64,000 bases of DNA, taken from Escherichia coli O157:H7 (GTDB lineage Bacteria; Pseudomonadota; Gammaproteobacteria; Enterobacterales; Enterobacteriaceae). Below the pieces are notes generated by a model. That model was not told the origin of the DNA and ran no database searches. It worked only from the letters and a program-made list of their open reading frames with translations. Positions within the stretch are counted from its first letter, which is position 1, and the number at the start of each line of letters is the position of its first letter. The DNA is taken from assembly GCF_013167455.1 (NCBI RefSeq), contig NZ_CP038330.1, one strand, 5' to 3'. A program made the translations under genes and the position numbers. Shown here one piece after another: positions 51,450-54,209 of the stretch.

Positions 51450-52493
51450 GATGGTCACGCACAAGACATTAAAAAGGAGCCTGCTTGCCCTGAGTGTGGC
51501 GGCCAGTCTCGTCATGGCACCGACAGGGGCGATAGCCGCTAACGGCCTCCAATCACAGATGGACAAACTCTTCAATGAAATGAGCAACACAACACCACCT
51601 GGGGTTTATGAAAGCCAACGACGTGGCGTTTTAGCTGGTGGCCGGTTCACTGCAAAGACACGAATCTTCGACGAGAACCTGGTGAGCTTTGCCCCTCCAT
51701 CATGGAAAGCTGGTTGCGGTGGTGTAGATCTGTTCGGCGGTTCGCTTTCCTTCATTAACGCGGATCAAATTGTCCAACTCCTTCGGGCTGTAGCAGCCAA
51801 CGCCAAGGGCTATGCCTTCCAGCTTGCGCTCGATAACGTTTTCCCGGACGGAGCGAAGTGGATAGAGAACTTCCAGAAGAAAGTGCAAGCGCTCAACCAA
51901 CATCTGGGCAACTCCTGCCAGCTCGCTCAAGGTTTCGTGAACGACCTAACCAGCGGCATGGACCTTAAACACAAAACTGATGCTTCTATAACCGCGACAA
52001 CTTCCGGCCTGTATGAAGACTTCTTCGGGTCCAAGCAGGAAACCAGCGGCAAGAGTCCTCTGGAAGAACTGAAAGCCAACAAACCTGACGAATACAACAA
52101 GATGATTGGCAACATCGTCTGGAAGCAACTCAAGAGCAACAACGCCAACACCTGGTTCCAGTACGGGGATAACACCCTTCTTGAAGCGATCATGTCTTTA
52201 ACCGGCACAGTCATCATTGGTGATCTGGTAAACGACCCGAACTCAACCGGCACTGGTGCGAAAACAACCCCTCTGACGACCCTACCAGGTAACAAGATCA
52301 CCTTGTCAGACCTGATTTCAGGCGGTTCTGTTGAGATCTATTCCTGTGATTCTGATACGACCAACTGCCTGAGTGCTGGCTCCAGCAATAAAACTGTCGT
52401 GCTCAAAGGTATCAAGAACCAGATCACCGATATGCTGTTTGAACCGCCCCGGAAATCCTGGAGACTAAACTCCCTGAGAAAGAGGTAAACAGG

Positions 52494-52820
52494 ATGACTA
52501 AAAATACTCGTTTTTCCCCCGAAGTCCGTCAGCGGGCGATTCGTATGGTTCTGGAAAGTCAGGATGAATATGACTCACAGTGGGCGGCAATTTGTTCCAT
52601 TGCCCCAAAGATTGGCTGTACGCCGGAGACTCTGCGTGTCTGGGTTCGCCAGCATGAGCGGGATACCGGGGGCGGTGATGGTGGGCTCACCAGCGCTGAA
52701 CGTCAGCGTCTGAAAGAGCTGGAACGTGAAAATCGTGAACTGCGCCGCAGTAACGATATCCTTCGCCAGGCTTCCGCTTATTTTGCGAAGGCGGAGTTCG
52801 ACCGCCTCTGGAAAAAATGA
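52494..52820 (+). CDS. IS3-family transposase OrfA (HTH)
   Basis: 108 aa, [23 protein letters not shown]... Confidence 0.85.
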
Positions 52821-53707
52821 TGCCACTGCTGGATAAGCTGCGTGAGCAGTACGGGGTCGGACCGGTATGCAGCGAACTGCATATTGCCCCGTCAACGTAT
52901 TACCATTGTCAGCAACAGCGACATCATCCGGATAAACGCAGTGCCCGTGCGCAGCACGACGACTGGCTGAAGAGAGAGATACAGCGCGTATACGATGAAA
53001 ATCATCAGGTGTACGGTGTGCGTAAAGTCTGGCGTCAGTTGTTACGGGAAGGAATCAGGGTGGCCAGATGTACAGTGGCACGTCTCATGGCGGTTATGGG
53101 ACTTGCCGGTGTTCTCCGGGGTAAAAAGGTCCGTACGACCATCAGCCGGAAAGCCGTTGCCGCAGGCGACCGCGTAAACCGTCAGTTCGTGGCAGAACGA
53201 CCTGACCAGCTGTGGGTGGCTGATTTTACTTACGTCAGCACATGGCAGGGCTTCGTCTATGTGGCGTTTATCATTGATGTGTTTGCCGGATACATCGTGG
53301 GGTGGCGGGTCTCATCGTCTATGGAAACGACATTCGTGCTGGATGCGCTGGAGCAGGCGTTGTGGGCCCGTCGTCCGTCTGGCACCATCCATCACAGCGA
53401 TAAAGGCTCTCAGTATGTGTCACTGGCCTATACGGAGCGACTAAAAGAAGCCGGATTACTGGCATCAACAGGGAGTACAGGCGACTCGTATGACAACGCG
53501 ATGGCTGAGAGCATCAATGGTCTTTACAAAGCGGAGGTAATACACCGTAAGAGCTGGAAAAACCGTGCAGAAGTGGAACTGGCCACACTAACGTGGGTGG
53601 ACTGGTATAACAATCGACGATTGCTGGGAAGGCTGGGCCATACTCCTCCGGCAGAAGCAGAAAAAGCTTATTATGCTTCCATCGGAAACGATGATCTGGC
53701 AGCCTGA
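52817..53707 (+). CDS. IS3-family transposase OrfB (DDE integrase-like)
   Basis: 296 aa; DDE catalytic core (WVADFTYV ... HSDKGSQY ... DNAMAES). Confidence 0.85.
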
Positions 53708-54209
53708 GTTCACAGATAAAACACTCTCCAGGAAACCCGGGGCGGTTCAGTTAGGAACAAGCTCTACACCTGGTGTGATCTACAAATACGCAACGAACTC
53801 TGGAACCTTAACCGACCCAGAAAAGGCCTTTGTTTCTAACCTCCCCGGAGGGATTGGCACCATTGTTCGTAACTTGTCTGTCCTTTCACAGGACGGCGCT
53901 AACCTGTTCGCAACAGAGTCATCAGGAGCGATAGCCCTGACCATGATGTATAGCTTCTCGGAAGAGTTCTTCCGCGCAGCTCGCATTGCGATGGCTAACA
54001 GCAAATCACCCTACAAGAAAGAGGCACTAGAGCTTCTCGCGCAATCGCAACAGCAAATCCGTGCTGAATACACAATCCTGTCCTCTCAATACGGCGATCT
54101 GGCAAGCCAAATTGAGAAATACAACAACCTACTGGACAACATCCGCAAGCAAAAATACATGCTGGCAACTTTGTCCAATCCTCCTAGCACGAACTAAGGA
54201 GCTATTGGA

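Follow-up and report, generated by a model that had tools for sequence, protein, structure and literature searches.

An IS629 insertion in traH of an IncC multidrug-resistance plasmid and its predicted consequence for self-transfer

Introduction

Can an IncC resistance plasmid whose traH gene is split by an insertion sequence (IS) still transfer itself, and how did the gene come to be split? The question is raised by a stretch of 64,000 nucleotides from Escherichia coli O157:H7 (contig NZ_CP038330.1; the whole stretch is called the window here), in which a traH-like open reading frame starting at 51451 enters a foreign block at 52440, as seen from a reading of the sequence of 51300-54400 together with the listing of its open reading frames. 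In IncC plasmids, traF, traH and traG form a single AcaCD-activated operon driven from the promoter PtraF (PMC5389848). A first-pass annotation of the same DNA had described traH as split at ~52440 by a ~1310-bp IS with terminal repeats and flanking GTT duplications; it placed the element in the IS3 family as IS629-like, held traF and traG to be intact and the insertion to be recent and simple, and predicted that the plasmid would be transfer-defective unless complemented.

Results

The interrupted traH gene

The inserted block occupies exactly 1310 bp (Table 1). It begins with the 13-mer TGAACCGCCCCGG at 52440-52452 and closes with the reverse complement of this 13-mer at 53737-53749, the ends of the element being TGAACCGCCCCGG...CCGGGGCGGTTCA; with one mismatch permitted the 13-mer is matched at only these two places in the 64-kb window, and 0.11 matches would be expected by chance. 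The terminal inverted repeats reach 25 bp, of which 22 match and the first 13 are perfect, and the trinucleotide GTT directly abuts the element on either side as a target duplication. A 4-bp duplication or shifted IS ends could be ruled out, as only GTT is repeated and the two parts of the gene (989 and 445 nt) add up to 1434 nt exactly.

When the IS and one copy of GTT are excised in silico, the two parts join into a traH open reading frame of 1434 nt, which has no mismatches to the intact traH shared by plasmids pRM13514 (WP_000256129.1) and pAR060302. The insertion point is therefore after nucleotide 989 of the gene, in codon 330 of 477. Position, length, terminal repeats and 3-bp duplication all stand as the first-pass annotation had given them, and the comparison with an intact traH from a related plasmid, which it had proposed as a check, came out to the base.

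Table 1. Features of the traFHG region and of the inserted element, in window coordinates.
Feature	Coordinates	Strand	Remarks
traF, 346 aa, intact	50409-51449	+	First gene of the AcaCD-activated traFHG operon (operon: PMC5389848)
traH 5' fragment	51451-52439	+	nt 1-989; codons 1-329 and 2 nt of codon 330
Target-site duplication, left GTT copy	52437-52439
IS629 (IS1203 isoform), 1310 bp, IS3 family	52440-53749	+	Transposase strand is the traH strand
Left terminal inverted repeat, 25 bp	52440-52464	+	Starts TG
IS629 orfA, 108 aa	52494-52820	+	Positions 1-86 of 369 of NF033516
ALIL pseudoknot (RF01497)	52775-52891	+	Rfam match
IS629 orfB, 296 aa	52817-53707	+	DDE/integrase catalytic part; -1 frame relative to orfA; positions 93-369 of 369 of NF033516
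Right terminal inverted repeat	53725-53749	-	Ends CA
Target-site duplication, right GTT copy	53750-53752
traH 3' fragment	53753-54197	+	nt 990-1434; last base of codon 330, codons 331-477, stop
traG, 1204 aa, intact sequence	54210-57824	+	Downstream of the IS in the same operon

Identity of the inserted element

The architecture of the block is that of the IS3 family: its 1310 bp lie within the range of ~1.2-1.55 kb, its inverted ends read TG...CA and its duplication is of 3 bp, and orfA is overlapped by an orfB in the -1 frame at an A-rich site with a pseudoknot, an arrangement predicted to frameshift, with a DDE transposase profile. The orfB product scores 316.3 bits against the NCBIfam model of IS3 transposases (NF033516; cut-off 160). 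The ALIL pseudoknot was matched over the full length of its model at 121.5 bits (gathering score 50; E = 5.6e-32) and covers the overlap between orfA and orfB plus a run of six A residues at 52812-52817.

Over its full length the element is 100% identical to copies in the chromosomes of E. coli O157:H7 Z1834, where the copy sits in ureD, and E. coli O111:H- 11128; both copies carry the RefSeq/PGAP label of an IS3-like element, IS1203 family transposase, with programmed frameshift. [quoted passage not shown] Going by this identity the element is the common IS629/IS1203 of EHEC, an assignment made by comparison with the chromosomal copies as annotated, and the IS629-likeness noted in the first-pass annotation is thereby sharpened. 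ISfinder treats elements with more than 90% DNA identity as isoforms, and the IS3 family transposes by a copy-out/paste-in route. The element is ~95% identical (60-64 mismatches) to the second IS629 subtype found on pRM13514 and pEC4-1b, which fits the published divergence of 4-5% between IS629 subtypes; IS1203 is an isoform of IS629, and IS629 produces duplications of 3-4 bp (PMC3271280).

Judged from its sequence, the copy in traH is apparently intact. Neither the terminal 13-mer nor a comparison of long repeats revealed a second copy of IS629 in the 64-kb window. A composite transposon was ruled out, the 13-mer being present at two positions only and no other long repeat in the window matching the IS.

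The plasmid backbone

The traF-traH-traG block matches 1009 plasmids in PLSDB, 926 of them at an identity of at least 99%; the matches span Klebsiella, Salmonella, Escherichia, Vibrio and other genera, with Vibrio cholerae plasmids at 100%. Window positions 26385-62862 are collinear with pAR060302 (typed as IncC, MOBH and MPF_F) in the order IS26/mer region, Rhs, UvrD-like helicase, traFHG and the FlhDC-type regulators acaDC, and positions 62863-64000 correspond at 100% to positions 1-1138 of pAR060302, comprising mobI and the first bases of the rep gene. Between 27929 and 62862 the sole differences from pAR060302 are the IS with its duplication and one unit of an 8-bp repeat. Base for base, the two plasmids share traF, traG, the regulatory region of 57825-62862 (acaDC) and mobI, and the earlier statement that traF and traG are intact thus holds at the level of sequence. 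The first 25,000 positions of the window are the usual floR-tet(A)-containing resistance island, with genes for topoisomerase III and a cytosine methyltransferase. By these matches the backbone is that of an IncC (IncA/C2) multidrug-resistance plasmid of the pAR060302/pSN254 lineage, with an MPF_F-type type IV secretion system.

The interrupted gene lies in the expected context for traH, with traF upstream and traG downstream, both intact. Scoring 160 bits against the F-plasmid equivalog model NF010279 (cut-off 625), its product is, by profile comparison, a TraH homologue and not the F-plasmid orthologue, and the traF product reaches 261 bits against the TraF-like model TIGR02740 of NCBIfam (cut-off 232). 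The F plasmid itself was ruled out, as TraH, TraF and TraG are all far below the F equivalog cut-offs and the backbone is IncC.

Several further features were seen in this backbone. An intergenic tandem array of the octamer ATTACCGT at 42427-42466 has one unit more than in pAR060302. At 25575-27928 three copies of IS26 stand head-to-tail. The first is complete (820 bp, with inverted repeats at 25575-25588 and 26381-26394); the other two (26395-27161 and 27162-27928) measure 767 bp and each lack 53 bp at one end. The counterpart in pAR060302 is a complete IS26 and one truncated copy only, and a tandem amplification of the truncated unit seems to have taken place relative to pAR060302. Within the floR/tet(A) island a 310-bp direct repeat occurs at 19351-19660 and 23635-23944, the two copies being 99.7% identical and 4284 bp apart. 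The first 25 kb of the window are found with 100% coverage and identity at 5139977-5164976 of NZ_CP077499.1, from E. coli O111:H8 strain 7-58 72A, where the match (IncC backbone and resistance island) sits within a 5.8-Mb chromosome record of an IS629-rich STEC; this location suggests that an IncC plasmid has integrated into the chromosome, or else that the assembly was wrongly joined.

Consequences for TraH and conjugation

In its interrupted state the traH reading frame runs on into the IS and stops at 52488, encoding a product of 345 residues, 329 of them native and 16 a foreign tail. In the intact protein, residues 37-400 match the Pfam TraH domain (PF06122; E = 1e-100), with the break at residue 330 inside it, and the product of the 5' fragment aligns to positions 9-316 of the 457 positions of the F TraH model. 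Because the last ~70 residues of the PF06122 domain and the 77 C-terminal residues are missing, we infer that the truncated TraH is non-functional. The 3' fragment is cut off from its promoter, ribosome-binding site, start codon and signal peptide.

What the loss of TraH would mean for transfer can be judged from the IncC plasmid pVCR94, in which individual deletion of traH wholly abolished conjugative transfer and traH_C supplied in trans restored it (PMC5389848). The same traH null mutant was rescued by the island SGI1, a rescue that needs TraH_S together with TraG_S: co-expressed traHG_S restored transfer partially, and traH_S on its own failed to complement (PMC5389848). By analogy with pVCR94, carried over via the near-invariance of the IncC traFHG block (926 of 1009 plasmids at 99% or above), an IncC copy with traH::IS629 is very probably not self-transmissible. 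This verdict covers the genes of the window; traI/D, traLEKBVA, traC and traWUN lie outside it. The transfer defect that the first-pass annotation had predicted, together with its proviso about complementation, thus finds support in the traH deletion and trans rescue of pVCR94.

Expression of traG may be reduced as well through polarity of the IS, because only transcripts that run through the whole 1.3-kb IS can extend from PtraF into this gene. A scan of 50200-54400 for promoters and terminators found no promoter-like site, and terminator-like sites there are no commoner than in shuffled sequences, with none inside the IS that was convincing. The plasmid could still be mobilisable in principle, by the same analogy, if TraH or the TraH and TraG pair of SGI1 were supplied in trans, because mobI and the adjoining region of the expected oriT are intact in the window.

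Origin and age of the insertion

The history that we favour on these observations is that one copy of IS629 recently transposed into traH, at codon 330, while the gene was on an IncC plasmid related by lineage to pAR060302/pSN254, and duplicated the 3-bp target GTT as it did so. With TraH broken there would be no working MPF_F mating apparatus and no self-transfer, because deletion of traH abolishes IncC conjugation, and traG would perhaps be under-expressed too. The insertion probably occurred in an IS629-carrying E. coli, and the host at the time was most likely a Shiga-toxin-producing (STEC/EHEC-type) strain.

That the event was recent is argued by an IS undiverged from the EHEC copies, a perfect duplication and flanks identical to those of intact plasmids, and also by the absence of the junction from every collection searched. 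Among 72,556 plasmids of PLSDB and 5,426 complete E. coli genomes, no record matched a 401-bp query spanning the left junction on both of its sides, a 34-mer over the junction had no match in the representative genomes of GTDB or in the metagenome contigs of JGI, and an exact protein look-up of the 345-residue fusion of TraH with the IS-encoded tail returned no record. The recent, simple insertion claimed from the letters alone is supported on all of these grounds.

Discussion

Taken as a whole, a recent single transposition of IS629 into the traH of an IncC plasmid, with loss of self-transmissibility, is in our view a highly probable account of this locus. One rival reading would make the insertion an artefact of assembly, with a multicopy IS629 misplaced into traH and the true plasmid intact. 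IS629 occupies up to 40 or more places per EHEC chromosome, repeats are a classic source of misassembly, and no independent record in the collections searched has the same traH junction; a chimera, however, is unlikely to yield exact IS termini, a perfect 3-bp duplication and a traH restored to the base, which together are the signature of transposition, and we regard an artefact as scarcely credible.

Two other readings accept the insertion and concern what it does to transfer. The plasmid might still spread, and the lesion matter little for its epidemiology, if TraH were supplied by a co-resident SGI1-family island or another A/C-type element, and the intact mobI and expected-oriT region of the window would serve such help. 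No second TraH is encoded in the 64-kb window, however. SGI1 is found mainly in Salmonella and Proteus, rather than in E. coli rich in IS629, and its presence does not go together with the stable maintenance of an IncC plasmid. The rescue of the pVCR94 null mutant by SGI1 and its partial restoration by traHG_S speak for this possibility, and the failure of traH_S alone speaks against it (PMC5389848); on balance we find it quite improbable that the plasmid spreads in this way. Alternatively, the interrupted gene might be a reversible off-state, in which precise excision of IS629, driven by the IS-excision enhancer (IEE) of an EHEC host, restores traH in a subpopulation and transfer is only masked. 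IEE promotes IS629 excision in EHEC O157 (PMC9943667), and IEE-mediated excision of IS600 from lacZ restores function in STEC O121:H19 (PMC9397093); the IS in the window is of the EHEC IS629 type, with its ends and duplication intact. Restoration of the frame would nevertheless demand that the IS be lost exactly, together with one of the two GTT copies; no sequence of a revertant turned up, and the reading is speculative for traH; we hold it to be very unlikely. The preferred account remains a recent transposition that very probably leaves this plasmid copy without self-transfer.

Earlier work has already described the IS, the gene and the plasmid family, as well as this way of inactivating a gene and the effect of losing traH; only this particular insertion allele was not found elsewhere. 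Nothing new is learned from it on the biology of IS629, TraH or IncC plasmids; the mutation is of a routine kind and its practical value is modest. For resistance epidemiology, it means that an IncC copy with floR, tet(A), mercury and other resistance genes is probably locked into its current host lineage, save for gene help of the SGI1 type or an excision event. In plasmid annotation traH should here be called a pseudogene, and the unique junction between traH and the IS could serve as a lineage marker.

Comparison with other insertions and known systems

Of the 1009 plasmids that match traFHG, 60 were sampled at even spacing; the operon was interrupted by an IS in three of these (~5%), twice by an unnamed IS3-family element and once by ISKpn18, and uninterrupted in 56. 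Closer parallels are plasmids pRM13514 and pRM12581 of E. coli O145:H28, with a 1310-bp IS629-type element in traF and not in traH, and pEC4-1b, with such an element in traG and a duplication of GTA. All three resemble the window in having an IncC traFHG operon in an E. coli host, with flanks 99.96-100% identical, and differ from it in the gene that was hit; the IS of pRM13514 and pEC4-1b is moreover the subtype only ~95% identical to that of the window. The hits in traF and traG are therefore independent of the one in traH, being in a different gene and of a different IS subtype. pRM13514 is additionally a 64.5-kb deletion derivative, whose original description lists traG, traH and traF and states its mobility as still to be determined (PMC3893438).

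The junctions of the traF insertion in pRM13514 (locus positions 3229-3260 and 4540-4570) show GCC on both sides, but on the left one additional A separates GCC from the IS; the duplication may be of 4 bp (GCCT) and carry one mismatch, or the IS may have a variant end and measure 1311 bp. Plasmid p1902-010-1 (NZ_AP028311.1) has two IS629-type elements, again of the subtype ~95% identical to that of the window, at locus positions 613-1826 and 10141-11354; they are oppositely oriented, one at the 5' end of traF and one in the place expected for acaD. The traF-traH-traG-SLT segment that they bracket is only ~92% identical to the usual IncC sequence, and may represent an IS-bounded replacement of the transfer region.

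It might be asked whether recurrent hits of IS629 in traFHG and acaDC of IncC plasmids reflect selected silencing, possibly as a transfer switch reversible by IEE, and not neutral bombardment by the IS. If true, silencing would relieve pathogenic E. coli rich in IS629 of a costly or phage-exposing conjugation apparatus; we think this quite unlikely.

Among systems described outside the IncC transfer region, lacZ::IS600 of STEC O121:H19 (PMC9397093) is likewise a simple insertion of an IS3-family element that inactivates a gene in an STEC background; the IS and the gene are different ones, and reversion as seen there is only hypothetical at traH. With the IS629/IS1203 of EHEC the element of the window shares its 1310 bp, its orfA and orfB, its predicted -1 frameshift and its ALIL pseudoknot, and only the insertion site differs. 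The engineered traH_C null mutant of pVCR94 (Carraro et al., 2017; PMC5389848) comes closest on the side of the plasmid, with the same gene lost in the same plasmid family, but whereas that mutation is a clean and demonstrably non-polar deletion, the window keeps a 329-residue N-terminal fragment of TraH, and its IS may be polar.
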